From the NCBI GenBank assembly GCA_964348465.1, contig CAYGCW010000001.1:14336-49075 (forward strand): a stretch of 34,740 bases of DNA, given 5' to 3'. The position numbers and the translations under genes are program-made. Below, piece by piece: positions 1 to 24,254 of the stretch. The notes beneath the pieces are model-generated. The model saw nothing but the letters and a program-made list of their open reading frames with translations. It searched no databases and had not been told where the DNA came from. The DNA is from an uncultured Acidimicrobiia bacterium. Its GTDB lineage: Bacteria > Actinomycetota > Acidimicrobiia > Spongiisociales > JAOTWH01. The first letter of the stretch is position 1; the number at the start of each line of letters is the position of its first letter.

Positions 1-721
1 AGCCAAGGTCGCCCAGGACGGCCTGATCCTCACCGAAAGCCAGCTCACGGCGCTGGAAAAGGCCAAGGCCGACAAAGAGGCCCTCACCGCCGCCGCTCAC
101 AGACCCGGCGCCGATCGACCCCCCGAGGGCCGGCCGCATCGGCTCGGTCAGGAGTCGGGCGCCGGCGGCCGCGGCCAGTGCCACTGCGGCAACGACTCCG
201 GCCGGCGGCCGCCTCCGGCGCAGGGCCGCCACGGCCGCGGCCGCCATGACGAGCAGCAGGGCCGCATAGAGCTCGACCGGGTGGCGGGTCACGGCACTGC
301 CGGGAAGCGCGTATGCCCACGGCAGCTCGCTGGCCGTTCCGAGACACGACTCCCGCAGCAGGCATCCGGCGTGCCATCCGGCCAGTCCGGCGAGGACGGC
401 CGCTGCGGCGGCATCGGCCAGGACGGCGACCTCGCCGCGGGCCAGCACGGCGAAAGCGGCCGCGGCGCCGACCACCGCCCAGACGGTGTCGACCCCGCCG
501 CGCACCACGAGCACGTCGGCCGGGTTGGCCACGGGATTGGTACCCGTGAGGACCATGGCCGCCAGCCGTCCGACGATCAGGCCGGCGATGCCTGCCGTCA
601 GCGCGGTGTCCCACACGCTGCGGGTGCAGTCGGCGGCGTTGCCGCGGCGCGCCTCAACGTACAGCACTGCATACATCGAAGCGATGCCGACGAGGGCCGC
701 TCCGAGGAGCGAGAACTCCAT
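1..721 (-). CDS. Divergent Lgt-family-like polytopic membrane protein (start in window; 3' end unresolved, frame stays open to the window edge)
   Basis: Absent from the ORF track because this frame has no stop before position 1. The ATG at 721..719 shares one nt with the TGA of the upstream TlpA-like gene (TGATG). My translation reads MEFSLLGAALVGIASMYAVLYVEARRGN..VRGGVDTVWAVVG..LAGWHAGCLL..ELPWAYALPG..TRHPVELYAALLL..GARLLTEPMRP. By eye it is collinear with E. coli Lgt blocks WLATRRAN / WDGGMSFHGG / GRLGNF / PRHPSQLYE / FRIIVEFFR. In the last ~35 codons (1..100) third-position GC is poorer than in the antisense frame, so the true 3' end is uncertain. Confidence 0.4.
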   Translation of the reverse strand, partial: MEFSLLGAALVGIASMYAVLYVEARRGNAADCTRSVWDTALTAGIAGLIVGRLAAMVLTGTNPVANPADVLVVRGGVDTVWAVVGAAAAFAVLARGEVAVLADAAAAAVLAGLAGWHAGCLLRESCLGTASELPWAYALPGSAVTRHPVELYAALLLVMAAAAVAALRRRRPPAGVVAAVALAAAAGARLLTEPMRPALGGSIGAGSVSGGGEGLFVGLGLFQRRELAFGEDQAVLGDLG

Positions 722-1209
722 CAACCGCTGCGCAGCAGCTCGTCGATGCGCAGCGCGAGGCTGCGTTCGTCGATCACGCCGGTGTGCAGCGTATCGAGGT
801 CGCCTCCGGGCCGGAAGAAGAACGTCAGCGGCACCCCCCGTCCGCCGAGCGCCGCGGGCACGGCACCGGGCGGGTCGAAGAAGTGCTCGAACGCGCCGAG
901 CCGGAACTCGTCGATGAACTCCGCCGCCGCCCTCTCGGAGTCGCGCACGGCCACCGACACGAAGCGCACCCGGTCGTCGAACTCGCGGGCGGCGGCGCGG
1001 AGGAGAGGGGCCTCGGACCGGCAGGGGATGCACCACGATCCCCACACGTTGAGCACGACCGGCCGCTCGGAGGTGGCGAGCAGGACGCGCATCTGGTCGG
1101 GATCCGTGGGCGCGAGGACGGAGGGCGGGGAGCCGGCCCCGCTCCCGCCGCACGCGGCAGCCGTGATCGCAAGTGCGGCGACCGCCACCAGCAGCCGTGG
1201 GAACAGCAT
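721..1209 (-). CDS. TlpA/ResA-like thiol:disulfide oxidoreductase lipoprotein (thioredoxin fold)
   Basis: 162-aa ORF. It has a lipoprotein signal with lipobox (LAITAAAC) and a WCIPC CxxC active site in a thioredoxin-like context (VVLNVWGSWCIPCRSEAP). Third-position GC is high. Confidence 0.85.
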   Translation of the reverse strand: MLFPRLLVAVAALAITAAACGGSGAGSPPSVLAPTDPDQMRVLLATSERPVVLNVWGSWCIPCRSEAPLLRAAAREFDDRVRFVSVAVRDSERAAAEFIDEFRLGAFEHFFDPPGAVPAALGGRGVPLTFFFRPGGDLDTLHTGVIDERSLALRIDELLRSG

Positions 1210-1276: not shown

Positions 1277-4200
1277 ATGGGACGTGCCTGGTCCGGCCTG
1301 CTGAGGCGCCTCGGAAGCCTGGTCGATTGGGCAGCACGATGGGGCAGGCAGCTGCTGGGGGCCATCTCCTCCGTGGTCGCCCGGCGGCTCGCCGGGCTGC
1401 GCCATCGGGCGTGGCGGGTGACCCGCCGAATCGTTGGGCTGCTCGCGGCACCACCCGGGTCTGTGAGCTCGGAGGTGTGCGGCCCGCCTCCGGATCCCGC
1501 CGCCATCCGCCCGGAGTGCCGCCGCTACCCGGGCGTGGCGGCGATCGTGGTCGTCATGCTGGCCGCCTTCGTGGTTCTCCAGCAGCTCGACGCCCTTCTC
1601 GAGGGCATGCGGACCACCGGCGGCCAGGGCTACGGCATGGGACGGGCGCTCCGGGATCTGCCGGGCGCGTTCGACGCCTGGCAGGAGTGGCACGCAGGAA
1701 ACGAGCGGCTGCTGTCCCCGGGGTGGGTGGTGGGCGCGTACGTGCTCGTCGACACGTTCGCATTCGTTCCCACCGTCACCGCGTTGATCGCCTTCGTCCT
1801 GGTCACGATGGTGCGGCGCATGCGGCCCGGGTGGGCTCGCTCCGGCCCCAGGGTCGAAGCCCGCTACCGGGAGCGGCTCGCCGAGATCCGGCGTCGCAAC
1901 GCTGAGACGGTGGCCGCCAACGACGCCGCCCGGCGCGCCTTCGAAGAGGAGAGTGCGCTGCGGCCCGCCGAGGATCGGCGAGGTCCGCCGCCCGCCGTGC
2001 CGCTCATCCCCGAGCCGCCTTCACCCGACGGCCGATCCCTGGCCGCGTACACCGGGCGGTGGGCGAAGACGCTGCGCTGGACGGCGCCGTTGCTGGTGGT
2101 GTTCTTCCTGACGGACGTCGCAGAGAACCTGCTGTTCGGAATCTCCTATGCCGCAGGGTGGACGGGCCTCGGCTCTCCGATCGGAGTCCTGACCTCCGTC
2201 AAGTGGCTCTCGGTGGGCTTCCTGGCCGCAACGGTGGTCTACGTGCGGGTGGCGGCTCAGCCGGCCGAGTCCCGTCTCGACGGCCGCGGCCTGAGCGAAG
2301 ACGCCCGCGCCGTCTTCAGGGGCCTGGTGGCGATGCGGGTGCCGCTGGTCATCTTCCTCTTGGTGGCCGGAGCGCTGGCGCTGGGCCTGCTCGACCAGAT
2401 CCCGGACGCCATCCGGCGCTGGAGCGTCGTGCAGCTGGCGGCGGCCTTCTACTTCGTCGCCGGCCTCTCGGTGGCGCTGTGGATGTTCGGGCTGTGGGTG
2501 TATCGGCGGGTCACCGAGGGCTTCCGGCGTTACGAGGTGGACGCCCCTGCGGCACTCAAGCTGCGCCGCAGGGTCGGGGCGTCGTTCCTGGCGGCAGCCG
2601 CCGGCCAGACCATCGTGTGGGCGGTCCTTCCCGACCGGGTGGGCCTCGGCCTCCTCGTGCCGGCGGCGATCGTGCTTCTCTTCTTCGTGACGTCGGCGGC
2701 GCTGCCGACGCCAGACCCGCCGGAGGATCCGCCGCCGCCGCGCTGGCCGAGACGGATCATTCCGCACTTCCTGCCTCGGTTCCTGGCTGCGGCGGCCGTG
2801 GGCGCCCTGGGCCTGGCGGCGCTGAACGCCGCCATCCCGACGATGGTCGTGAAGCGAGAGCGCGCGGCCACCACCGCCGCCGTGGTCGGCGACATCATCT
2901 TGCCGGTGCTGCTCATCGTCGCAACGGTCGCCACCGGCCTCTTCGCCGTGGTGAGGTCCCTGCGGGTGGATCCGACGGCGCCGGGTCACCATCGGGCGAG
3001 CACGCAGCACGAGCGGAGGCGGGCGTTCACCGTTCTCCTCGCCCTGGCGGTCGTCCCTCCGGTGGCCCTCTGGACAGCCTGGATGACCGGCCTCGGCGAC
3101 GAACTCCGGGATCTCCCTGCCATCTCGGCCAACTGGCTGCTGCTGGCCGCCACGCTGGCGCTGGTCGCCTCGGCGGCGGCCTACTACCTCTACGACGCGG
3201 ACTACTTCCCGTTGCGGTGGGGCGGCGGCTGGTTCGCAGGCCTGAAGGAGTTCGCCTTCGACAAGTCGCGCGGCGGCCTCGATTGGTCGCGGGAGGCCAA
3301 ACAGCTCGGCTCGGTCTCGGCGGTGGTGTATCTCCTCATGGGGCTCTGGTTGGTGTGGAAGCCGCTCGCAGCGGCGCCGCTGCTGGGCACGGTGGGCGTG
3401 GCGAGCCTATGGGTGACCTCGTTCGCCGCCGTCGCTCTCGTCGCCACGATCTTCGCCGAGCGCACCCGCCCGCCCCGGCTCCTGAGCCACCTGGGGGTGA
3501 ACCGGCTCCCGGTCTTCGCGTTGCTGGCCGTCTGGGTTCTCGCTGCCCAGATTCCCGTCCTGCGGGAGCCGACCTACCACGACGTCCGGATCGCAGCCGC
3601 AGGCGACTTGGCGGCCACGGCTGCCGCCCCGTTCGACGCGCACGCCGGGCAAGTCCCGGGGCTGTGCGACGCGGCGCTGCCGTCCGGCCCCAGCCGCATC
3701 GACATGGAGGATGCTCTGTGCCGGTGGCTGGCGGCCAACGACCTGCTCGACGGCCGGCGCCGCGGCGCCGTTCCGATGGTCTTCGTATCGGCGTGGGGCG
3801 GCGGCATCAGGGCGGGGGCGTGGACCGCTTTGGCGATGGACTGCATCTTCGAGCCGGACGGCTACGTGGAGGCCCCGGCGACCGTCGACGGCACCGCGGT
3901 CGATCTCTGCCGGCGCAACGGCGCCCTGGGCGGCGACCCGTACGAGTTCAGCGACTCGCTGTTCGCCCTCTCGGGGATCTCCGGCGGCTCTCTCGGTTTC
4001 GCCGAGTACGCCGCCTACCTCAGCGGCAAGGAGCACCACGAGATCGCCCCGAAGTGGGTGCGGGCGGCCTTCGGCGCCGACTTCCTGGCTCCCACCGTCA
4101 GCCAGCTCCTCTTCGTCGACGTGCCGCTGAGTCTGTTCGGCTACGTCGACGGGCCCGACGACCGGGCCATTGTGACCGAGCGGGCCTGGGAAGCGGCGTG

Positions 4201-5146
4201 GGCCGGCTCCGGTGCCGATGGCCTGCTCAGACAGGGACTGTTCCGATCCTGGCGGGACAACCGTCACGTGCCGCTGCTGGTCCTCAACGGGACCAGTCAC
4301 ACCGATGCGTGCCGTTTCAACGCGTCGGTCCTCGACGCCGGCGTCGAGGTGGTCGTGGAGGACGACGGCGGCAAGTACATATTCGACGACTGCACGTCGC
4401 TGGACGCTTTCGAGGCGGACTACCGGCCGGCGCCGACCACGCTCGCCGTGCCGCGGGGCGCCTGGGCGCTGGCGCAGACCCGCGATCTCGTCGACTTCCT
4501 GTGCGAGGACCAGGATGTTCGGCTGTCCACGGCGGCGCTGCTCTCGGCGCGGTTTCCGGCAGTCAGCCCGCCGGGTCGGATCGACCGCTGCGCCGGGTCG
4601 GCGCTGCGGCCACCACAAGGAGAGCAGGCCTACGTGACTGATGGAGGCAACCTGGAGCTGTCGGGCACGCTGACCGCGTTTCAGCTCTGGGACGCGGTGG
4701 CGCCGATGATCGAGACGTACAACCGGCATGCGGCAGGTTCGGCGTGCATCGTGCCGTTCATGATCCACCTCGAGAACGGGTACCGGCCACCGGGTGCGCA
4801 GAGCCTCGACCCGTCCCTGCCGAACGAGTGGCTGGCGCCGGCGCGGAGCGACGCCCGGGACGGCCTCGTCAAGAATGCCCGCATCAACGCCGCGCTGCCA
4901 TTCGACGACCCGCTCGGTCTCCCCGGCGGGACCGTGACCGTGGGCGAGGACAAGCCGCGCGAGTTCCGGTACTCGGTCGACCAATACGCGTTCCTCACCA
5001 CCCGCGCCCACCCGGGGGTCCAGGCGCCGTTCGGATGGGCGCTGTCGGAGCAGGCGATCGAGGACCTGGAGAATCAGCTCCTCGAGAACGCCGCGCAGCT
5101 CGCCGAGATAGGGGCCTGGTTCTCCGGCGGCCTCAGCTGCGGCTGA
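1277..5146 (+). CDS. Large polytopic membrane protein with C-terminal patatin-like phospholipase domain
   Basis: This is the in-frame part of track ORF 281..5146. The ORF's 5' part overlaps the TlpA-like gene, so I chose the ATG at 1277 (MGRAWSGLL..), giving 1289 aa. About 770 aa carry many hydrophobic helices. These are followed by patatin blocks: GGGIRAG (3797..3817), nucleophile elbow GISGG (3974..3988), LSARFPAVSPP, and DGG-N (4640..4651). Confidence 0.7.
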   Translation: MGRAWSGLLRRLGSLVDWAARWGRQLLGAISSVVARRLAGLRHRAWRVTRRIVGLLAAPPGSVSSEVCGPPPDPAAIRPECRRYPGVAAIVVVMLAAFVVLQQLDALLEGMRTTGGQGYGMGRALRDLPGAFDAWQEWHAGNERLLSPGWVVGAYVLVDTFAFVPTVTALIAFVLVTMVRRMRPGWARSGPRVEARYRERLAEIRRRNAETVAANDAARRAFEEESALRPAEDRRGPPPAVPLIPEPPSPDGRSLAAYTGRWAKTLRWTAPLLVVFFLTDVAENLLFGISYAAGWTGLGSPIGVLTSVKWLSVGFLAATVVYVRVAAQPAESRLDGRGLSEDARAVFRGLVAMRVPLVIFLLVAGALALGLLDQIPDAIRRWSVVQLAAAFYFVAGLSVALWMFGLWVYRRVTEGFRRYEVDAPAALKLRRRVGASFLAAAAGQTIVWAVLPDRVGLGLLVPAAIVLLFFVTSAALPTPDPPEDPPPPRWPRRIIPHFLPRFLAAAAVGALGLAALNAAIPTMVVKRERAATTAAVVGDIILPVLLIVATVATGLFAVVRSLRVDPTAPGHHRASTQHERRRAFTVLLALAVVPPVALWTAWMTGLGDELRDLPAISANWLLLAATLALVASAAAYYLYDADYFPLRWGGGWFAGLKEFAFDKSRGGLDWSREAKQLGSVSAVVYLLMGLWLVWKPLAAAPLLGTVGVASLWVTSFAAVALVATIFAERTRPPRLLSHLGVNRLPVFALLAVWVLAAQIPVLREPTYHDVRIAAAGDLAATAAAPFDAHAGQVPGLCDAALPSGPSRIDMEDALCRWLAANDLLDGRRRGAVPMVFVSAWGGGIRAGAWTALAMDCIFEPDGYVEAPATVDGTAVDLCRRNGALGGDPYEFSDSLFALSGISGGSLGFAEYAAYLSGKEHHEIAPKWVRAAFGADFLAPTVSQLLFVDVPLSLFGYVDGPDDRAIVTERAWEAAWAGSGADGLLRQGLFRSWRDNRHVPLLVLNGTSHTDACRFNASVLDAGVEVVVEDDGGKYIFDDCTSLDAFEADYRPAPTTLAVPRGAWALAQTRDLVDFLCEDQDVRLSTAALLSARFPAVSPPGRIDRCAGSALRPPQGEQAYVTDGGNLELSGTLTAFQLWDAVAPMIETYNRHAAGSACIVPFMIHLENGYRPPGAQSLDPSLPNEWLAPARSDARDGLVKNARINAALPFDDPLGLPGGTVTVGEDKPREFRYSVDQYAFLTTRAHPGVQAPFGWALSEQAIEDLENQLLENAAQLAEIGAWFSGGLSCG

Positions 5147-5780
5147 CCGGGCCGGCGGACCCGGCCCGGCGGCCGAGCTCGCCGAGCACCGCAGCCGGCT
5201 CGATGGCGCGCTCGGCGAGCAGCACCAGCAGGTGGTAGACGAGGTCGGCGGCCTCGCCGGCGACCCGGTCGGCGGGCTCGCCGCCCGCGGCGTGGTTCTT
5301 GGCGGACAGCACCACCTCGGCGGCCTCCTCGATGAGCTTGCGAGCGGCGGCGTCGACGCCGCCGTCGATCAGCTCTGCGGTGTAGCTGCCTGCGGGGCGC
5401 TCCGCCGCCCGGCTGCGGATCGTGTCCCAGAGCGGCTCGAGCCGGGCGAAGCCCTGGCCGCGGACCTCGTCCGGACGGCCGAAGCAGGAGACCCTTCCGG
5501 TGTGGCAGGTCGGGCCGGCGGGCCGGGCAGTGATCAGCACGGCGTCGCCGTCGCAGTCGGCTGCCATGTCGACGACCTCGAGGGTGTTGCCGCTGGTGGC
5601 GCCCTTGCGCCACAGCTCCTGGCGGGACCGGGACCAGAAATGCACCTGTCGCGTCTCGATGGTGGCGGCCACCGCCTCCCGATCGAGATAGCCGAGCATG
5701 AGGACCCGGCCCGTGACCCAGTCCTGGACCACGGCGGGCACGAGGCCCCCGGCTCCGTATGAGAGGTCGTCGGGCGTCAT
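5133..5780 (-). CDS. hisIE: Bifunctional phosphoribosyl-AMP cyclohydrolase / phosphoribosyl-ATP pyrophosphatase
   Basis: 215 aa starting at internal ATG 5780 of track ORF 5133..6521 ([20 protein letters not shown]..). HisI motifs are HFWSRSR..LW.KG.TSGN and C.GD..L..A.P.GP.CHTG. The HisE-like tail reads YTAELI..G......KL.EEA.E. ATGA overlap with the hisF stop. Confidence 0.92.
5147..5169. terminator. 9-bp GC hairpin immediately after the patatin-gene stop, inside the 3' end of convergent hisIE
   Basis: CCGGGCCGG-cggac-CCGGCCCGG. The two convergent CDSs overlap by 14 nt (5133..5146). Confidence 0.3.
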
Positions 5781-11248: not shown

Positions 11249-11393
11249 GTTCTTGCTCTCGTATCGGTGGTTCGGTCTGTCGATCGGTTTTTACGTATTA
11301 TTGTTTTAGCCTGCTAAAACGTTAGCAAGGTGAACCATAGCGTAGGGGCCGGCGGGCCCGTGCGCAAGACTCGATTCTCTCTGGAGGGACCGC
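11249..11393. promoter_or_regulatory. Divergent control region between yerC-his operon and hisA, locally AT-rich
   Basis: This 145-nt spacer is the only conspicuously AT-rich stretch in the window (ggtttttacgtattattgttttagcctgctaaaacgttagc). A GGAGGGA RBS lies 4 nt before the hisA GTG. Confidence 0.6.
11303..11326. promoter_or_regulatory. Candidate operator: overlapping inverted repeats built from TTAGC/GCTAA half-sites
   Basis: GTTTTAGC-ct-GCTAAAAC (11303..11320, 8-bp perfect arms) overlaps GCTAA-aacg-TTAGC (11313..11326). This gives three half-sites in alternating orientation next to a TrpR-family regulator gene. Confidence 0.4.
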
Positions 11394-12107
11394 GTGCAGA
11401 TCATCCCGTCCGTGGACGTGCTCGACGGCCGCGTCGTACGCCTGCTGCGCGGCGACTACGACACGGTCACCGACTATGGCGCGGATCCTGTCGCGGCCGT
11501 GCGCCGTTGGGGGGAGGCAGGCGCGTCGCTGGTGCACGTCGTCGACCTGGCGGGGGCCCGCTCCGGAGTGGTCGACGACGGCCTGTGGCCCAGGCTGACG
11601 GGGGCCGGGGTGCCGTTTCAGGCCGGCGGGGGCCTGCGGACCGTGGCGGCGGTGGCATCCGTGCTCTCCGCCGGAGCGGCGCGGGCCGTTGTCGGGACGG
11701 CCGCGGTGTGGGAGCCGGACTTGCTGGCGGCAATGGTCGCCGCGGCCGGCGCCGGCCGGATCGTGGCGGCCGTGGACGTGCGATCCGGGCGGGCCGAGGG
11801 GGCAGGATGGCGGGACGGCGGGCGGGATCTCGCGACCGTGCTTGCCGGCCTGAGAGCCGCCGGGGTCGCGCAGGCACTGGTGACCGCGATCGCCCGCGAC
11901 GGGACCGGCGCCGGGCCCGACTACGGCCTGCTGGCGGAGGTGGCGGCGGCGACTCCCGGCATGGCCGTGATCGCCTCCGGGGGCGTGGGCAGCCTCGATC
12001 ACGTCCGGGAGCTCGCCGCTCTCGGGGTGGAGGCGGCAATCGTGGGGCGGGCTCTCTACGAAGGTGCGTTCACCCTCGCCGAGGCGCAGGCGGCGGCCGC
12101 CGGGTAG
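11394..12107 (+). CDS. hisA: ProFAR isomerase HisA (possibly PriA-type, untested)
   Basis: 237 aa with a GTG start (MQIIPSVDVLDGRVVRLLRGDYD.. VHVVDLAGA.. GGG.R.. ASGGV). This is the (beta/alpha)8 HisA pattern, distinct from the HisF copy. Confidence 0.9.
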   Translation: MQIIPSVDVLDGRVVRLLRGDYDTVTDYGADPVAAVRRWGEAGASLVHVVDLAGARSGVVDDGLWPRLTGAGVPFQAGGGLRTVAAVASVLSAGAARAVVGTAAVWEPDLLAAMVAAAGAGRIVAAVDVRSGRAEGAGWRDGGRDLATVLAGLRAAGVAQALVTAIARDGTGAGPDYGLLAEVAAATPGMAVIASGGVGSLDHVRELAALGVEAAIVGRALYEGAFTLAEAQAAAAG

Positions 12108-12175: not shown

Positions 12176-14293
12176 GTGGCCGTGGACCGGATCGCCGGGA
12201 TCATCGTGAGGCATGCGAGGCGCATCCTGGCCGTGACCGCGGTGATCACGGTTGCCAGCCTGGCGATGCTGCTGCGGATGGACTTCAACGCCGACGTGGC
12301 CTCGTTCGTGCTCGAGGGCAACCCGACGGGAGAGGCGTTCAAGGAGCTTCAAGAGAAGTACGCATCGGCAGACCCCATCAACGTGATCGTGTCGCTGACC
12401 TCCGGGTCGACTTTCGCCGAGCCCGCGGGGTTGGCGGCACTGGCCGAGCTGCGCGACGAGCTCGCTGCCGTGGACGGTGTCGCCGCAGTGGCTTCGGTGG
12501 TTCCCGACGCCAACCCGCTCACCGGTGAGCCGCTGACGCCGGAGACGCTCCGGTCCGCCTCGCCCGAGGTGATCGCCCAGGCGGCCGCCGCCAGCCCGCT
12601 CTCCGGCCTGCTCCTCAGCGAGGACAAACGTCATGCCCTCATGCTCGTCACCCCGGCGGGCGACAGCACCGCGGTGGCGCGCCGGGTGGCGGACGTCACG
12701 GCCCCCACCGGCACCGAGGTCACGCTGTCGGGCAACCCGGTGGTGTTCGCCTCCGTGCTCGACAAGCTCTCGCTGTTCATCCTCGTCATACCGCCGGCGG
12801 TGATGATCCTGCTCGTGCTCACCTTCACCGCCACCATCGGGGACCGGCGGCTGAGCGTGCTGGCGCTGATCCCGGCCGCCCTCGGAGCCATCTGGACCTT
12901 TGGGCTGCTGTTCGCGCTGGGGCGGGAGGTCGACATCGTCACCGTGATCGTGCCGATCTTCGTGATCGTGATGGGCTCGGCGGACGGCCTGCACTTCGTC
13001 ACCCATTTCCAGGAGGAGGCGGCTCACGACGACCCGGTGGCGCGGGTCAGCACGGCGCTCTCCCACGTGGGCGTGCCGATGATCCTCACCACGGTCTCCA
13101 CCGCAGCCGGGTTCCTGTCCCTGGTGGCCACGGGCGTCCAACCGATACAGCAGCTCGGCCTGTTCACCGCCATCGGCATCTCCTTCGCAGGCGTCATCTC
13201 GTTCTTCTCGCTCCCCGCTCTGCTGAGCCGTCTCCACATCGAGCCGCACCATCACCAAGCGCTGATCGGACCCCGGATCACCCGGGCGCTCAAGATGCTG
13301 GTGCGCACGCGGGTGCCTGCCGCCCTGCTCGTCGTGGGACTCGTGGCCTTCGCAGCCGTGTCGCTGCCCCGGCTCGACGTGAACCCCGATCAGCTCTTCT
13401 TCTTCAAACAGGGAGATTCGGTCCGTGCCGCCTTCGAGCGAACGGAGGAGCTGTTCGGCGGAGCCACTCCGCTGATGGGGGAGTTCGCCTACGACCCGAA
13501 CGGCGGGCCGGACCAGCTGGCGGCCATCGCCGCGCTGTCGGAGCGCTTCGAAGCACAGCCCGGCGTGCGGGAGGTCTTCTCGGTGGCGGATCTCGTGGAG
13601 GCCCTGCCGCCCGGCCAAGCCGCCGGCGTGCTCGGCGGCGGTGCCCGGCTTCCGATCGGCGAGATGGTCAGCGGCGACGGCCTGCGCTTCATGCTTCTGC
13701 CGTCGGACTTCTCGACGGCCGATCTCCAGGGGTGGCTCGCGTTCGCCGAGGAAGCGCCGGAGATCCGGGTTCTCACCGGCATGCCGGTGGTGTGGGACGA
13801 GATCGCCCGGCTGGTCCTGGAAGCCCAGGTCGTGTCGCTGTTGGTGGCGTTCGCGCTCGTCACGGCCATGCTGCTGGGCTCCTACCGCCGCCTGCGCCAG
13901 ACGCTCGTCTCGCTCGTTCCGATCGCCCTCACCGTCGCCACCATGCTCGGCTTCATAGCGGTGTCGGGCATCCAGCTCAACCTGCTGACGGCCGTGATTG
14001 GCGGAATCGTGATCGGCGTCGGCATCGACTACGCCATCCACTTCGTGGCGGCCATCGACCACGCCCGGCACAACGGTGCCGGCTACGTGCTGCGGGCCAT
14101 CGACCGCGCCGGCCGACCGATCGTCGCCAATGCTCTCGGGATAGCCGTGGCCCTGAGCGCGTTGTGGCTGTCGCCGCTGGCGATCCACCCGCAGGTGTCG
14201 ATGATCATGTGGGTGGCGATGATCACCGGTGCCCTGACGGCGTTGGTGGTCATCCCGGCGCTGCTGCCGTCCGACGGCGTACGGGAGCGCTGA
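12176..14293 (+). CDS. MMPL/RND-superfamily transporter (two 6-TM halves, SSD-like)
   Basis: 705 aa. The architecture is duplicated: a soluble loop followed by a TM bundle, twice. Typical MMPL blocks are FVIVMGSADGLHF and GIVIGVGIDYAIHF. The AGGAGG at 12171..12176 favours the in-frame GTG at 12182 as the true start. Confidence 0.8.
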   Translation: MAVDRIAGIIVRHARRILAVTAVITVASLAMLLRMDFNADVASFVLEGNPTGEAFKELQEKYASADPINVIVSLTSGSTFAEPAGLAALAELRDELAAVDGVAAVASVVPDANPLTGEPLTPETLRSASPEVIAQAAAASPLSGLLLSEDKRHALMLVTPAGDSTAVARRVADVTAPTGTEVTLSGNPVVFASVLDKLSLFILVIPPAVMILLVLTFTATIGDRRLSVLALIPAALGAIWTFGLLFALGREVDIVTVIVPIFVIVMGSADGLHFVTHFQEEAAHDDPVARVSTALSHVGVPMILTTVSTAAGFLSLVATGVQPIQQLGLFTAIGISFAGVISFFSLPALLSRLHIEPHHHQALIGPRITRALKMLVRTRVPAALLVVGLVAFAAVSLPRLDVNPDQLFFFKQGDSVRAAFERTEELFGGATPLMGEFAYDPNGGPDQLAAIAALSERFEAQPGVREVFSVADLVEALPPGQAAGVLGGGARLPIGEMVSGDGLRFMLLPSDFSTADLQGWLAFAEEAPEIRVLTGMPVVWDEIARLVLEAQVVSLLVAFALVTAMLLGSYRRLRQTLVSLVPIALTVATMLGFIAVSGIQLNLLTAVIGGIVIGVGIDYAIHFVAAIDHARHNGAGYVLRAIDRAGRPIVANALGIAVALSALWLSPLAIHPQVSMIMWVAMITGALTALVVIPALLPSDGVRER

Positions 14294-15432: not shown

Positions 15433-15897
15433 CTATCCGGGCGAGCCCGGGTACCGGTGAGCGGCCGGCAGATCTCGGGTGAGATCGCAGCGGTACCACG
15501 CCGCCGGCCGGTGGGGATGGCCGGTCGTGGCCCAGAAGTCGGCTTCGAACTCGCGCGGCACGTCGTCGATGGTGATCTCGACGTGTGACTTCCCGGCGCC
15601 GGGATCGCCGAGGACCACCACCGGCGACCCGGCGACGGCCAGCATCGCCCGATCCAGCAGCGCCTGGTCCTCATCGCCCTGAGCGGTGACCACGTAGCGA
15701 AGCGTCACTCGTTCGCCGTCGCGGCCTCGATCGCCGCCGGTCGTCGGCCACTCGACGCTGTACAGGTAGACGCTCACCCAGCGGCCCGGCTCGTCGGGCA
15801 GCAGCTCGGGCGTGACCCCGGCGTGGATCCCGGCGGCCGCCAGCTTCCCGCCGATCGTGGCGAGCAGGGCTTCGGTCACGTCTTCGATCCCGGTCAT
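15433..15897 (-). CDS. DUF4255 / Pvc16_N-like protein (Afp16-type tail-tube terminator homologue), short form
   Basis: 154 aa from ATG 15897 (MTGIEDVTEALLATIGGKL..), with ATGA overlap to the tube gene stop. DUF4255-like blocks are VSVYLYSVEW, VTLRYVVTA and FWATTGHPHRPAAWYRCDL. Confidence 0.7.
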   Translation of the reverse strand: MTGIEDVTEALLATIGGKLAAAGIHAGVTPELLPDEPGRWVSVYLYSVEWPTTGGDRGRDGERVTLRYVVTAQGDEDQALLDRAMLAVAGSPVVVLGDPGAGKSHVEITIDDVPREFEADFWATTGHPHRPAAWYRCDLTRDLPAAHRYPGSPG

Positions 15898-16394
15898 GAC
15901 TCCTCCGGCTCCGTTACCGACATGTCCCGCTCCCATCCCTCGTGCTCGAGTTTGATGGACTGAATCGCCACCGCGTTCCCCCCGGCATCGAGGTCGGGGA
16001 GCGCCTGGTACTCCGACACCCAGGCACGACGCACCAGGTAGCGCAGCACGGTCTGGCCCTGGAGGTTCAACAGCTCGATGGCGATGTCCTTCCGGTAATT
16101 CTTGAGCGAGCCGGGCTCACCGGTGCTCGGGTCGAATGCGAGACGGGCCCACTCCTCGAAGACCGGGTCGTGCGTGACGCCGCGCTCCAGCGTGATCGGC
16201 TCGAACCTGGTCGGGCCGGGGGCGGTGCGGTTGGCGGCGGGCTCCGTACCGGTCCGGTATTCGACGGCTTCGGTCATCCGGCGGAGCGCTGACACGTGGG
16301 ATACCCCGGCGACGACCTCGCCGTCGATGATCACCCTGAACCTGCAATTGCGGTACGGGTCGCGGCGGTGGGTATTCACGACGAAGTCGGCCAC
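15894..16394 (-). CDS. Phage T4 gp19 / Afp1-type tail tube protein homologue
   Basis: 166 aa with a GTG start, preceded by GGGGGA. Blocks are YRNCRFRVIIDGEVVAGVSHVSAL....EAVEYRTG......RTAPGPTRFEPITLERGVTHD..FEEW, then RKDIAIELLN.QGQ...RY.VRRAWVSEY.ALPDLDA.GN.VAIQSIKLEHEGWE. This is the pattern of contractile-tail or eCIS tube proteins. Confidence 0.8.
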   Translation of the reverse strand: MADFVVNTHRRDPYRNCRFRVIIDGEVVAGVSHVSALRRMTEAVEYRTGTEPAANRTAPGPTRFEPITLERGVTHDPVFEEWARLAFDPSTGEPGSLKNYRKDIAIELLNLQGQTVLRYLVRRAWVSEYQALPDLDAGGNAVAIQSIKLEHEGWERDMSVTEPEES

Positions 16395-16424: not shown

Positions 16425-17171
16425 CTATCGGTCCGGCCGGGCCGCGTAGAGGGCGACGGCCACCGCCGTGGCCAGGTTGAGGCTCGACACACCCGGTCGC
16501 ATCGGGATCGCCACGCGCCGGGCGGCTCGCGCGAGCAGGGCCGGGCTGAGGCCCCGGCGCTCGGACCCGAACGCCAGCACAGCGCGCTCCGGTACCGGGT
16601 CGCGGTCGAACCGCGCGCCTCGCGGGTCGAGGGCCACGATCGGTCGGTCGGTGGCGGCCAGCTCGCCGATGGCTGCGACCGGCACTGCGAAGTGGAGCCC
16701 GGCGGCGCCGCGCACGGCGTTGGGGTGCCACGGGTCGAGTGGTCCGGTGCTCAGCACCCCCGCCGCCGTGGCGGCCGCCGCCACCCGGACGGTGGCGCCG
16801 ACGTTGCCATGGTGAGTGGGGGCCTCCAGCAGCACCACCGGCGCCGGGCCGGGGTCGGCGAGCACCGCAGCCGGGTCGACGGCGGGACGCTCGGCGATGG
16901 CCAGCACTCCGGTGGCCGGCGGGGATGGGGCGAGCCGGGCGAAGACCTCGGGCGCCACGCCGGAGAGGAGCGCCGCGAGCCGTTCGGCCAGGTCGGGCGC
17001 CAGCTCGGCGGCCAGGCCGGCCGGCCCGGTCGGGTCGGCCGCGACCGCCAGCCGGACCACTGCGCCGAAGCGGACGGCGTGCTTGAGAGCGTGGAAGCCT
17101 TCCAGGACGACCAGGCCGGGGTCCGAGCGAGCCGCGGCGAATTCGGCGGGCAGATCCTGCGCGCCCGTCAC
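16425..17171 (-). CDS. SpoU/TrmH-family (SPOUT) RNA 2'-O-methyltransferase
   Basis: 248 aa from GTG 17171, with GTGA overlap to the AAA+ gene stop. All three SPOUT knot motifs are intact: LLEAPTHHGNVGATVRVAAA, LAFGSERRGLS and VAIPMRPGVSSLNLATAVAVALY. Confidence 0.85.
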   Translation of the reverse strand: MTGAQDLPAEFAAARSDPGLVVLEGFHALKHAVRFGAVVRLAVAADPTGPAGLAAELAPDLAERLAALLSGVAPEVFARLAPSPPATGVLAIAERPAVDPAAVLADPGPAPVVLLEAPTHHGNVGATVRVAAAATAAGVLSTGPLDPWHPNAVRGAAGLHFAVPVAAIGELAATDRPIVALDPRGARFDRDPVPERAVLAFGSERRGLSPALLARAARRVAIPMRPGVSSLNLATAVAVALYAARPDR

Positions 17172-19159
17172 CCCTGGCTCGCGTACCGGGCCACGGCGGC
17201 CTCGAAGTCGGCCTTGGTCACCTCGATGGCGCTCGGATCTCGCCGCAGGGCGTTGAGCGCGGCTTCCCGCAGGGCCCCGGTGAGGTCGGCGAAGGAGAGG
17301 CCCGCGGTCTCCTCCGCAACCTCGTCGAGGTCCACGTCCGCGGCGAACGGCACGTCGGTGATGCCGAGGAGCGCCCGGCGGGCTTCGACTGCGGGCAGTC
17401 CCAGCTCCAGGTGCACCTCGAAGCGTCCGGCCCGGAGGAGCGCAGGATCGATGAGGTCGCGGCGGTTGGTGGCGCCGATGATCACGATGTCGCCGCGATC
17501 GGCGACGCCGTCCATCTCCGTCAGCAGCGCCGCCACCACCGAGTCGGTGACCGAAGTCGTGGAACGACCGCGCACCGGAGCGAGCGCGTCCAGTTCGTCG
17601 AAGAACAGGATCGCCGGCGCGGCCGCCCGCGCCCTGGCGAATACCTCCCGCACGCCCCGCTCCGACTCGCCGACGAACTTGTCGAGGAGTTCGGCGCCCT
17701 TCACTGCGAAGAACGCCGCTCCGGACTCGTGGGCCAGAGCCCTGATCACGAACGTCTTGCCGGTGCCGGGCGGGCCGTGGAGGAGGATGCCGCGGGGCGG
17801 GTCGATGCCGAGCCGCTCGAAGCGCCCCGGGTCCGTCATCGGCCAGATCACCGCCTCGGTGAGCCGCTGCTTCACGTCGTCCAGGTTCGCCACCCGCTCG
17901 AATCCGTACGAGGGCACTTCCCCGAGCTGAACCGTCCCCAGCGAAGGCACCGTCTCCTCGACGGCCCTCAGCAGCAGCTCCTGGCCGACGTGGCCGCCGG
18001 AATGAGCGACCAGCGCCGAGGCGTGAACGACCGCCGCCAGGATGTCGGCTCCCGAGAAGCCGGCGGTACGGGCCGCCAGCAGCGCGTAGTCGACCTCGCC
18101 GATGGGGACCCTGGCCAGCGCCGCCTCGAAAAGCAACCCTCGCCGCTCGCCGTCGGGCGGCGGGATCGACAGATGGCGGGGCACCAGCGGCGACGACGTG
18201 ATCGACCGGTCGAGCGCCCCCAGCGACGAGACCCCGAGGACGCAGGCGAGGCGGGGCTTCTCGGCGACGGCGTCGAGGAACCAGCGCAGGATGGCGCCGA
18301 CCTGGGCCCGGAACATGCCCTCTTCCCCGGCCACGGCCTCGAGGCGGTCGACGAAGATCACCCCAGGAGTGGAGGTGGTCTTGAGCGCGCCGTCGAGCAC
18401 GTCGATGAGACGCTCCGGCTTGAACACCAGCCCGAGCGACACTTCCTTGACGGTGGCACCGGCCCCGGAGGCGGCGGCCGCCACCAGCTCCGACTTGCCG
18501 CACCCTGCCGGGCCCTCCATCAGGACCCCGGCGACCGCCGGCAAGCCCCATGCCTTGGGCAGATCGCGGGGCGACGTCAGCAGCGCCAGCCAGCCGGTGA
18601 GCATCTCCAGTTCGTCGTCGAGCCCTGCCAGCAGCGCCTCGGCCTGCGTCGGCGCCACCCGGGCCGGCCGGCCGGGGGCGACTGCTGCCGGCGGCGCCGG
18701 CGCCGTGTCGCCCGGGGCCGACACCACGGTGGCGCTGCCGACCAGCCCGGCCGGGCCGGGCACGACCTCGAGCACCCGCAGCCGCACCGGCCCGTCACCC
18801 TCGCCCACATAGGCCGGGTCGAACTCGACGTGGTCGCCGGGCGTCACCGCCCGGCCCTGGAGAGCCCTGGCCAGGGACTGGGCGTCGGCCGGCAGTTCCT
18901 CGCAGTCGAGCACGATCCGATGCGCCTGGGGAACCATGGCCCGCTTGGCTTCGACCACGTCGCCGTCGCCGACGGCGGCGTTGGCCATCGTCAGCGGTCC
19001 CAGGGTCACGGCGGTGGGTTGGGGCACCTCGCCCGGGTGGACCACAACGTGGGTGCGGCCGATGCTGATCGTTCCGCCCCCGGGCAGGCCCATCGCCGCC
19101 AGCAACGTGGCGTCGGCGCGGGCAAAGGGGTCGAAGCCGGGACGGACGGTGAAGCGCAT
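17168..19159 (-). CDS. Cdc48/VAT-like double-ring AAA+ ATPase (N-D1-D2; Afp15/Pvc15-like or Cpa-like)
   Basis: 663 aa. The N-terminal ~145 aa look like a CDC48_N double-psi barrel (GLPGGGTISIGRTHVVVHPG..VTLGPLTMANAAVGDGDVVE). D1 has Walker A GPAGCGKS (18491..18514) and a degenerate Walker B VIFVDRLE (18338..18361). D2 has Walker A GPPGTGKT (17753..17776), Walker B ILFFDELD (17588..17611), sensor GATN and Arg finger ALLRAGRF. Confidence 0.88.
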   Translation of the reverse strand: MRFTVRPGFDPFARADATLLAAMGLPGGGTISIGRTHVVVHPGEVPQPTAVTLGPLTMANAAVGDGDVVEAKRAMVPQAHRIVLDCEELPADAQSLARALQGRAVTPGDHVEFDPAYVGEGDGPVRLRVLEVVPGPAGLVGSATVVSAPGDTAPAPPAAVAPGRPARVAPTQAEALLAGLDDELEMLTGWLALLTSPRDLPKAWGLPAVAGVLMEGPAGCGKSELVAAAASGAGATVKEVSLGLVFKPERLIDVLDGALKTTSTPGVIFVDRLEAVAGEEGMFRAQVGAILRWFLDAVAEKPRLACVLGVSSLGALDRSITSSPLVPRHLSIPPPDGERRGLLFEAALARVPIGEVDYALLAARTAGFSGADILAAVVHASALVAHSGGHVGQELLLRAVEETVPSLGTVQLGEVPSYGFERVANLDDVKQRLTEAVIWPMTDPGRFERLGIDPPRGILLHGPPGTGKTFVIRALAHESGAAFFAVKGAELLDKFVGESERGVREVFARARAAAPAILFFDELDALAPVRGRSTTSVTDSVVAALLTEMDGVADRGDIVIIGATNRRDLIDPALLRAGRFEVHLELGLPAVEARRALLGITDVPFAADVDLDEVAEETAGLSFADLTGALREAALNALRRDPSAIEVTKADFEAAVARYASQG

Positions 19160-22850: not shown

Positions 22851-24254
22851 GTGAGGCTGCGCGCCCTGCTCGTGCTGGCCGCGGTGGCGGCGTCTGCTTG
22901 CGCCGGCGGTGCCGACCGGGCGCGGGGTGAGACGGTGCGGCTCCTCTTCGCAGGGGACGTGATGCTGGGGCGGGGCGTCGCCCGCGTGTTGGAGGCCGAC
23001 GGGCCGGAAGCCCTCGAGGCCATTCGGTTCGCGGTCGGCGCCGCCGACCTGGCCGTCGCCAATCTCGAGTCCCCACTCACGACCCGGCCGTATGCCGGCG
23101 GCGGACACGACCTGCGCGCCGACCCGGGAGCCGCGGGCATGCTGGCCGGCGCCGGGTTCGACGCGCTGGCGATCGCCAACAACCACGCCGGCGACGGCGG
23201 TCCGGGGACCGTGGCCGACACCGTTGCGGCGCTGGAGCAGGCGGGCGTCGCCGCCCTGGGGGAGCCATCCGGCGTCGTCACGCTGGACCGGAAGGGGCTG
23301 CGGGTGGCGCTCCTGGCATACGATCTGACCGGGGGCGGACCGCCGGACGACGTGGCCGTGTGGAGCGCCGCGGCCGCCCGGGAGTCGATCGGCGCCGCCC
23401 GGGCGGCAGCAGACATCGTCGCAGTCGGTATCCACGGCGGTGTCGAGGGCCTTCCCGGGCCGGACCCGGCCCTCGTCCGCGCGGTTCGCGACGCGGCCGG
23501 ATGGGGTGCCGACGTCGTGTGGGCGCATGGTGCCCACGTTGCCTACCAGGTCGAGGTCATCGATGCCGAAGGTGACGGCCGGCCGACGGTGGCGGCCTTC
23601 GGGCTCGGAGATCTCGTCTTCGACCGGTCCGGCACCGGGCTGCTGCTGGAGGTCATCGCCGGCGAGGCCGGCATCGAGGCCTGGCGGGTGGGGGAGTCGG
23701 CCCACGCCGACGGCCGTCCCGGCCCCCCGCGCTGGCGCGATCCCTCAGGTCCCGCGGCGGCCGTGGGGGGTGGCTGGTGGGCGCTCACCGATCGCCCGCG
23801 CGTCCGGCGGGCGCCGCCGGCGCCGATCATGGAGGTTGGCGGCGAAGTGCTGGCGGCAGCTCGCGGCGACCTCGACGGCGACGGCGCGGACGAGGCGCTC
23901 GTGTCCTTCCTCCGGCCGTTCCGGGAGACCCTCGTCAACCAGGCGTTCGAAGGCATCTGGGTGGACGACCGGGGCCGCAGCGCCCACCTCGGCGTGTACC
24001 GGTGGCCGTCGCTGGAGCCGGTGTGGATCGCCGGGACGTTGCCCCGCCCCGTCCTCGCTCTTGCGGCGTGCGACGGTGGCCTGGCAGTCGCCTACGGGGA
24101 GCCCGGGGCGCCGCCTGAGGCGGCCGGCGCCTGGCAGTGGAACCGCTTCGGCTTCACGGTCACCAGCGACCTGCCGGGAGCGGGCCGGCCCGGCTGCGCC
24201 GACGTAGACCGGGACGGCCGGGCCGATGCCGTGATCTGGGAGCGGACGCCGTGA
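22851..24254 (+). CDS. CapA/PGA_cap-family metallophosphatase-like lipoprotein with C-terminal FG-GAP/VCBS-like repeats
   Basis: 467 aa with a GTG start and lipobox AAVAASAC. CapA N-terminal signature is LLFAGDVMLGRGV...NLESPLT...IANNHAGD. C-terminal Ca-binding-like repeats are GDLDGDGADEALV and DVDRDGRADAVIW. Confidence 0.75.
   Translation: MRLRALLVLAAVAASACAGGADRARGETVRLLFAGDVMLGRGVARVLEADGPEALEAIRFAVGAADLAVANLESPLTTRPYAGGGHDLRADPGAAGMLAGAGFDALAIANNHAGDGGPGTVADTVAALEQAGVAALGEPSGVVTLDRKGLRVALLAYDLTGGGPPDDVAVWSAAAARESIGAARAAADIVAVGIHGGVEGLPGPDPALVRAVRDAAGWGADVVWAHGAHVAYQVEVIDAEGDGRPTVAAFGLGDLVFDRSGTGLLLEVIAGEAGIEAWRVGESAHADGRPGPPRWRDPSGPAAAVGGGWWALTDRPRVRRAPPAPIMEVGGEVLAAARGDLDGDGADEALVSFLRPFRETLVNQAFEGIWVDDRGRSAHLGVYRWPSLEPVWIAGTLPRPVLALAACDGGLAVAYGEPGAPPEAAGAWQWNRFGFTVTSDLPGAGRPGCADVDRDGRADAVIWERTP

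Follow-up and report, generated by a model that had tools for sequence, protein, structure and literature searches.

A conserved protein of Actinomycetota joining a polytopic membrane domain with a divergent patatin-like domain, a candidate envelope-lipid acyl-hydrolase

Patatin-like enzymes of bacteria occur as soluble cytoplasmic lipases, as secreted or injected effectors, and as surface proteins anchored by a beta-barrel. A membrane-anchored patatin domain that deacylates membrane phospholipids is found in proteins of the NTE/PNPLA6 type, while MprF combines, in one polypeptide encoded by a stand-alone gene, a large polytopic lipid-handling domain with a C-terminal soluble lipid-modifying domain and acts in membrane-lipid remodelling. 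The barrel-anchored kind is exemplified by the type Vd protein PlpD of Pseudomonas aeruginosa (5FYA, 5FQU), whose anchor consists of POTRA and a 16-strand outer-membrane beta-barrel and from which the patatin part is released. The patatin-fold proteins CapV and CapE (8ZR9, 9JEH, 9ION) of the cyclic-oligonucleotide-based antiphage signalling system (CBASS) act in the cytoplasm as soluble proteins, need cyclic nucleotides for their activation and have a CD-NTase gene beside their own. Analysis of a 34,740-nucleotide stretch of DNA from an uncultured Acidimicrobiia bacterium (contig CAYGCW010000001.1, positions 14,336 to 49,075; hereafter the window) established that it harbours a gene for a 1289-residue protein in which a polytopic membrane domain is followed by a divergent patatin-like domain. 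The predicted catalytic head is thus carried by a large alpha-helical membrane protein, probably at its outer face, which is unlike the known bacterial patatins, and we know of no characterised bacterial patatin that represents the outward head of a cytoplasmic-membrane protein with 13-15 helices (7 in the short forms described below).

The plus-strand frame that holds the coding sequence is open from base 2 of the window through the stop codon at 5146, and the region upstream of about position 1210 is the territory of two minus-strand genes. The ATG at 1277, which is preceded by GGGGGAGCG, is the first in-frame start past the divergent upstream gene and yields a product of 1289 amino acids (aa); further start candidates are GTG codons at residues 33, 48, 63 and 67. 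From approximately 1500 to 5100 the third-position GC content of this frame is 0.88-0.94 and the second-position GC content about 0.5, and as such a pattern is typical for a real gene in DNA of 72% GC the coding sequence is confirmed. Open frame, start and GC pattern agree on the protein that had been placed at these positions in an initial annotation made from the sequence alone. On a near-identical public contig (locus L081) the annotated protein is 1049 aa long and starts at residue 241 (position 1997 of the window), a start that was rejected owing to its removal of the first two transmembrane (TM) helices, which are conserved. Residues ~95-190, among them L108, W135 and D159, can be aligned across homologues and show conservation there, and the public start is consequently 240 residues too late. 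Members of the family are publicly named 'hypothetical protein', 'Patatin-like phospholipase' or 'PNPLA domain-containing protein', and public annotations, that is, the name 'hypothetical protein' and the late start on the near-identical contig, could now be corrected.

The soluble part that follows the TM helices comprises ~520 aa and contains all of the motifs on which the initial annotation had based its patatin assignment (GGGIRAG, GISGG, SARFPAVSPP and DGGN, the last at residues 1122-1125; see Table 1). Their order is that of PF01734/PNPLA proteins such as Pat17 (PDB 1OXW, 4PK9-4PKB), namely GGGxR, GxSxG, block III (S-A-R-F-P here) and DGG. Conservation was judged in three alignments of 20, 62 and 132 sequences, in all of which G842, S902, G903, G904, G907, P999, R1092, D1122, G1123 and P1251 are invariant. 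For G841, G843, S1084, T1085, A1086, F1093, P1094 and W1254 conservation is complete or reaches 90% or more, and H1245, P1246 and G1247, at the start of a family-specific C-terminal motif that reads HPGxxAPLGW in its family form, are nearly invariant. Patatin was the sole Pfam family matched by the relatives: eight of 20 close homologues matched it at E <0.01 (best E 3.5e-5), and it is precomputed for about one quarter of the family-search matches. Among distant members, whose tblastn matches to the query had E values of 1e-22 to 1e-28, two are over the Pfam cut-off (L067 with 36.5 bits and L072 with 29.3 bits), and two are just under it (L058 and L080, 27.0-27.5 bits).

For residues 770-1289 an AlphaFold2 (AF2) model based on an alignment of 62 sequences gave a mean predicted local distance difference test (pLDDT) value of 82.8 and a predicted template modelling score (pTM) of 0.88. 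In this model the GGG loop lies between a strand and a helix, Ser902 occupies an elbow of the strand-Ser-helix type, another strand ends at Asp1122, and these two residues should, as modelled, form a complete catalytic dyad without a histidine; the protein ends 165 residues past DGG in helices and short strands. When the model was compared with the PDB by Foldseek, ranks 1-28 were occupied only by patatin, CapV, CapE, PlpD, VipD, ExoU and cPLA2 (best E 7.8e-5, probability up to 1.00, TMt up to 0.59), the match after rank 28 having an E of 1.9, and patatin was the best fold match of the domain.

A number of results speak against this assignment. The Pfam Patatin match of the query (E 0.0049, 17.5 bits) is under the gathering score of 27.7, although it reaches from the GGG loop (841) to DGG (1124), which corresponds to positions 5-180 in a profile of 191. 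The GGG-to-DGG stretch is ~110 residues longer than the Pfam model; a longer-than-canonical block spacing had been remarked on at first. The TMt values are moderate (0.45-0.59), and sequence searches of the PDB with the single protein and with the family profile matched designed TM proteins alone, at E >0.1, and not a patatin. The NCBIfam and PADLOC family libraries gave nothing usable for the protein. The sub-threshold Pfam case is settled by the agreement between the matches of the relatives, the invariance of the motifs, the model and the Foldseek result, although, on the direct Pfam match of the query, the lack of a significant Patatin profile match that the initial annotation had named as refuting was only narrowly avoided. 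As GG-x-[RK]-[GA], G-x-S-x-G, D-G-[GA] and the fold are all present and it is the Pfam score threshold that is failed, the domain is a patatin-fold domain representing an outlying subfamily of patatin-like phospholipases. Compared with Pat17 and PNPLA proteins it shows 10-13% identity in fold alignments, falls below the Pfam cut-off and carries insertions of ~110 residues, and in addition it has eight cysteines, the HPGxxAPLGW motif and a covalently joined domain of 13-15 TM helices, with a probably outward orientation.

By hydropathy analysis, residues 86-762 contain 15 TM segments, and the same 15 long helices are seen in an AF2 model that covers residues 1-774 (pLDDT 78.5, pTM 0.79), where at least a dozen had been expected. 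The combination of polytopic membrane domain and patatin-like domain in one chain is genuine and conserved. The N-terminal tail (residues 1-84) is poorly conserved and homologues are not aligned there. It is followed by a four-helix segment, designated module A, in which E283 belongs to a motif with the family consensus ADxxEN, and by a core of eleven helices. The Arg/Glu-rich insert described in the initial annotation is present in the loop between TM2 and TM3, which has 19 Lys/Arg (K/R) in 88 residues and is modelled as a long helix (H185-228), but this loop is a gap in 19 of 19 homologues of alignment A1, that is, in all those fully aligned. The only invariant residues of the TM domain are Q374 and D377, within the family motif QxxD(V/A)IRRW, while L108, W135, D159, E283, R354, G704 and P745 are conserved at 90% or more. 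Thirteen of the TM segments have an alignment occupancy of 95-100% across the family; that of the TM10-TM11 hairpin is 0.24-0.46, and the hairpin appears to be absent from many members, a loss that would leave the membrane parity unchanged. The junction to the lipase domain follows the family consensus ExxxPP...RRxPV...HDVR and is kept in the shortest relatives examined (L061, L017 and L047).

For the TM domain of the query and its relatives no Pfam or NCBIfam family was significant, and Foldseek comparison of the N-domain model with the PDB yielded no relative (best E 0.84, TM score of at most 0.18), in keeping with the earlier statement that no other domain is recognisable. Known folds that were considered for it (MFS, GT-C, MprF flippase, MurJ and others) were rejected, as none gave a significant profile or PDB fold match, and an hhalign comparison among the four TM blocks found no repeat indicative of internal duplication. 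An exhaustive search with an N-domain profile from 45 loci plus the window (alignment A6) matched 1935 clusters (50% identity) at E <=1e-3 and 573 at the stricter E <=1e-30. Among the best 150 matches almost every protein is 900-1250 aa in length with the domain in front and ~450-500 residues after it, from which it follows that in these matches N-domain and lipase part nearly always travel together. A profile search for stand-alone N-domains gave just 10 matches, none of them with another Pfam domain, and the few short matches (519-760 aa) of the exhaustive search may be truncated gene calls. The invariant outer-loop Q/D pair, the conserved intramembrane acidic residues and the near-constant association with the lipase suggest that the TM domain does more than anchor the protein and probably binds a lipid substrate, or presents or delivers it.

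The distribution of the family was determined by a locus scan with one genome per species, which gave at least 481 loci, the best 80 of which were analysed. These 80 belong mostly to Actinomycetota, including Acidimicrobiia, Gaiellales, Thermoleophilia, Mycobacterium metagenome-assembled genomes, Streptomyces, Actinoplanes, Lentzea, Amycolatopsis, Blastococcus and Planctomonas. Short forms of 700-860 residues are found in Verrucomicrobia, Nitrospirae, Alphaproteobacteria and Gammaproteobacteria, and for the clean examples among them 7 TM helices are predicted, which would leave the N-terminus inside and the lipase outside, with the same K/R pattern as the longer proteins. Their 7-TM domain is colinear with TM5-6, TM9 and TM13-15 of the query (hhalign 92%, 46% and 95%, respectively), the TM9-15 block reaching a combined hhalign probability of 97% against the short forms, and they keep an R-TM-Q-x-x-(D/E)-x-x-R motif. 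In L061 there are two helices before the lipase in the frame read, and the last two helices and the PP loop are kept. A different arrangement is seen in P0144 of Caulobacter sp. Root1455 (990 aa), where module A is located after the patatin domain at residues 814-981 (hhalign probability 82%, E 1e-5). The module A motifs relevant to this comparison are LxQLDxLLxGMH, W, DxxxFxPAY, ADxxEN and KW, and the loop K/R pattern of the Caulobacter module is the mirror image of the actinobacterial one. Judged by its location and loop charges, this module seems to be permuted and to have the opposite membrane orientation, and module A is a separable unit. Full-text searching of the literature turned up no study in which a polytopic protein of this type carries a patatin domain, and the lipocone paper has patatin only as an operon neighbour. 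The family is large, includes cultivable genera (Streptomyces, Actinoplanes, Lentzea, Amycolatopsis, Blastococcus and Caulobacter) and is, as far as we could find, experimentally untouched.

As to function, we consider it reasonably likely that the protein is a membrane enzyme, namely a lipid acyl-hydrolase or transacylase of the outer face, in which the TM domain is more than an anchor. The lipid-remodelling role is accordingly the best fit among the three functional guesses of the initial annotation; nothing was found in support of a sensor-coupled enzyme, and the third guess, a membrane-disrupting effector, is dealt with below. In the proposed mechanism the Arg-rich N-terminus would stay in the cytoplasm, the 15 helices would span the membrane as module A and then the core, and the chain would exit on the outer face, where the ~520-residue patatin-fold head would be held, with four disulfides probably stabilising it. 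The complete Ser902/Asp1122 dyad and the GGGIR oxyanion loop suggest that this head would remove an ester-linked acyl chain from a lipid of the outer leaflet or cell envelope, or pass it on, by a chemistry that would use neither a nucleotide nor a coenzyme A (CoA) cofactor, and the TM domain, through D159, E283, R354 and the outer-loop residues Q374 and D377, would bind or present the lipid substrate. The chemistry is probably ordinary lipid deacylation. It counts against this proposal that no characterised family member was found, so that substrate and reaction direction are guesses. On a more speculative level, and as a tentative suggestion, the family may represent a hitherto unrecognised, phylum-spanning class of single-polypeptide lipid-processing machine, in which a 7-TM core of new fold would extract a lipid by means of the outer-loop Q/D pair and intramembrane acidic residues and feed it to a disulfide-locked Ser/Asp site on the outer face for deacylation or transacylation of envelope lipids, the 4-TM module being attachable at either end and apparently in either orientation.

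A rather doubtful, yet still credible, alternative is that the enzyme is mainly a transacylase, moving an acyl chain at the outer face, where there is no acyl-CoA, from a phospholipid to another envelope lipid or glycan, with the TM domain holding the donor or acceptor. Some patatin-fold enzymes, such as PNPLA1, are indeed transacylases, and a large conserved TM domain with intramembrane acidic residues suits lipid handling. A weak hint in the same direction is provided by an integral-membrane Acyl_transf_3 (PF01757) gene which adjoins the patatin-like gene in one clade of four loci (L003, L005, L007 and L013), either 2-26 nucleotides downstream on the same strand or divergently upstream. This neighbour is, however, confined to that clade, as it was found neither in the window nor at the other 76 loci, and the sequence does not separate transfer from hydrolysis.

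The outer-face location of the proposed acyl-hydrolase depends on the orientation of the protein, and on account of the K/R distribution and the eight conserved cysteines it is probable that the lipase domain faces outward, a location that, like the disulfides proposed for it, had not been foreseen in the initial annotation. The loops of the query contain 54 K+R on the predicted inside, to which the Arg-rich N-terminus belongs, and 11 on the predicted outside; the family means are 28 and 9, respectively, and in each of the 62 homologues the inside count is the higher one. A conserved basic loop (ERTRPP…NR) precedes the last helix, and the chain leaves via TM15 into the HDVR segment. The eight cysteines (residues 856, 878, 1012, 1039, 1076, 1105, 1157 and 1288) are 95-99% conserved and dispersed, with no CxxC, and the few sequences that lack some of them show a joint loss of 1012 and 1039 and of 1076 and 1105. 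As they are dispersed, conserved and lost pairwise, these cysteines probably represent four sequential disulfides of an exported domain. The opposite topology, in which the patatin domain would be cytoplasmic and would act on the inner leaflet in the manner of RssA or CapV, is in our view unlikely, even though a cytoplasm, be it their own or that of a host, is where the majority of characterised patatin-like proteins of bacteria act. The charge and cysteine arguments are both indirect, the basis for the predicted topology is hydropathy and the positive-inside rule only, and the TM5-TM6 loop, which is placed outside, carries a conserved RR, all of which is unfavourable to an outward assignment; moreover, the apparently opposite orientation of module A in the Caulobacter protein implies that orientation within the family is not rigid. 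A reversed protein is nevertheless at odds with the K/R counts in the query and in all 62 homologues, with the conserved R-rich loop ahead of the last helix, with the N-terminus-in, 7-TM arrangement of the clean short forms and with the dispersed cysteines and their paired loss.

An outward-facing enzyme also accounts better for the data than a pseudo-enzyme, that is, a protein that is chiefly a transporter or structural component and uses its patatin domain as a non-catalytic binding module. The sub-threshold Pfam score, the long insertions and a TM domain unusually large for an anchor are compatible with the latter, which we nonetheless regard as very unlikely, since Ser902, Asp1122 and the central oxyanion Gly do not vary among 132 sequences, nor in members from other phyla, which argues for retained catalysis. 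Finally, a membrane-disrupting protein that serves in suicide or defence as CapV does, or a toxin inactive until triggered, is the least probable of the alternatives and is hardly credible: CapV and CapE are among the fold matches (TMt 0.53-0.59) and a gp19-like tube protein and an AAA ATPase are encoded ~11 kb off in the window, but the protein has no PADLOC family match and none of the properties of CapV and CapE beyond the fold, the 80 loci show no conserved neighbour that is a CD-NTase or other cyclase, a sensor or an immunity protein, the gene sits in a housekeeping context between lgt/thioredoxin and the his operon, and it is spread over many actinobacterial genera in the manner of a core envelope gene, all of which disfavours the effector guess of the initial annotation. 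The missing PADLOC match, the lack of conserved neighbours and the housekeeping context likewise speak against membership in a secretion system.

With respect to the membrane-bound systems, PlpD (Foldseek ranks 16-27) resembles the query in being a membrane-tethered patatin outside the cytoplasmic membrane. The anchor of the query is, in contrast, alpha-helical and polytopic, its hosts are mostly monoderm Actinomycetota, and Pfam finds only Patatin in it, with no POTRA or barrel that would point to a type Vd protein. NTE differs in having one N-terminal TM helix, cyclic nucleotide monophosphate (cNMP)-binding domains and a cytoplasmic-facing patatin domain, whereas Pfam detects no cNMP domain in the query. 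MprF is an architectural analogy only, as no sequence or fold similarity to the query was detected and its soluble domain is a cytoplasmic aminoacyl-phosphatidylglycerol synthase and not a Ser/Asp hydrolase. If outward orientation and activity hold true, the family would contribute an additional enzyme class to envelope-lipid turnover in Actinomycetota, as well as a membrane domain without a known structural relative in the PDB.

Table 1. Features of the patatin-like fusion gene, its product and its neighbours (coordinates refer to the window unless a locus is named)
Feature	Coordinates	Strand	Remarks
Whole coding sequence, 1289 aa plus stop, monocistronic	1277..5146	+	Upstream gene divergent, downstream gene convergent
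Arg-rich N-terminal tail, residues 1-84, predicted cytoplasmic	1277..1528	+	6 K/R in last 40 residues; low pLDDT
Module A, TM1-TM4, residues 85-326	1529..2254	+	Conserved L108, W135, D159 (DTFxFVPxx), E283 (DVAEN)
Predicted cytoplasmic loop TM2-TM3, residues 183-266, with R/E-rich helical insert 195-225 and Pro-rich stretch	1823..2074	+	
Core TM domain, TM5-TM15, residues 343-762	2303..3562	+	Colinear with 7-TM domain of short forms
QIPDAIRRW motif, residues 374-382, predicted outer loop TM5-TM6	2396..2422	+	
ERTRPP loop (predicted cytoplasmic), TM15 and YHDVR exit motif, residues 728-771	3458..3589	+	Conserved junction to lipase domain
Divergent patatin-like alpha/beta domain, residues 831-1289, eight conserved Cys	3767..5143	+	AF2, Foldseek, Cys conservation
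GGGIRAG oxyanion-hole loop, residues 841-847	3797..3817	+	Between strand E62-70 and helix H74-89 (model numbering)
GISGG nucleophile elbow, residues 900-904, Ser902	3974..3988	+	Between strand E126-132 and helix H134-150 (model)
SARFPAVSPP, residues 1090-1099, patatin block III	4544..4573	+	Within family motif LSTAALLSARFP; alignments
DGG, residues 1122-1124, predicted catalytic Asp1122	4640..4648	+	End of strand E348-353 (model); D1122/G1123 invariant
Family-specific C-terminal motif HPGVQAPFGW, residues 1245-1254	5009..5038	+	Alignments
Lgt-like membrane protein, 228 aa	35..721	-	Pfam LGT on near-identical contig L081
Thioredoxin/TlpA-like protein, lipoprotein-type signal (…ITAAAC), WCIPC active site	721..1209	-	Divergent neighbour
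hisIE, convergent, last gene of his operon running to ~11138	5133..5762	-	
Acyl_transf_3 genes at other loci	L003 3162-4517; L005 11092-12972; L007 2019-3107; L013 4472-6040		

As had been noted initially, the patatin-like gene is divergent from a TlpA/Lgt-like pair, both members of which lie on the minus strand directly upstream, with the stop and start of the thioredoxin-like and Lgt genes overlapping. The thioredoxin-like neighbour is an extracytoplasmic thiol-disulfide oxidoreductase, and it is divergent to a gene whose predicted exported domain has eight conserved cysteines; this pairing was seen only in the present genome and the near-identical contig. The closest homologue, P0023, has wholly different neighbours. 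An all-versus-all BLAST of the flanking open reading frames of the 80 loci detected no conserved neighbour, and the largest flanking clusters, each present at no more than nine loci, are generic (ABC ATPase, histidine kinase, STAND/TPR and glyoxalase).

Downstream of the gene, the his operon on the minus strand comprises a fused hisIE followed by F, H, B, C, D and G, and a second His_biosynth gene, divergent from this operon, is located at 11346-12107. Past the his operon, ~7 kb downstream of the patatin-like gene, a gene of the MMPL family (RND-type lipid exporters) with a sterol-sensing-like region was identified at 12176-14293 (+). The T4 gp19-like tail-tube protein (15894-16394, -) and the double AAA+ ATPase (17168-19159, -) mentioned above may belong to a contractile injection system resembling a phage tail, or else to what is left of a prophage. 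Further along the window, a 740-aa DUF3160 protein is encoded at 24347-26569 (+; Pfam 498 bits), and its gene is adjoined by a homologue of PGA_cap (capsule synthesis) at 22851-24254.

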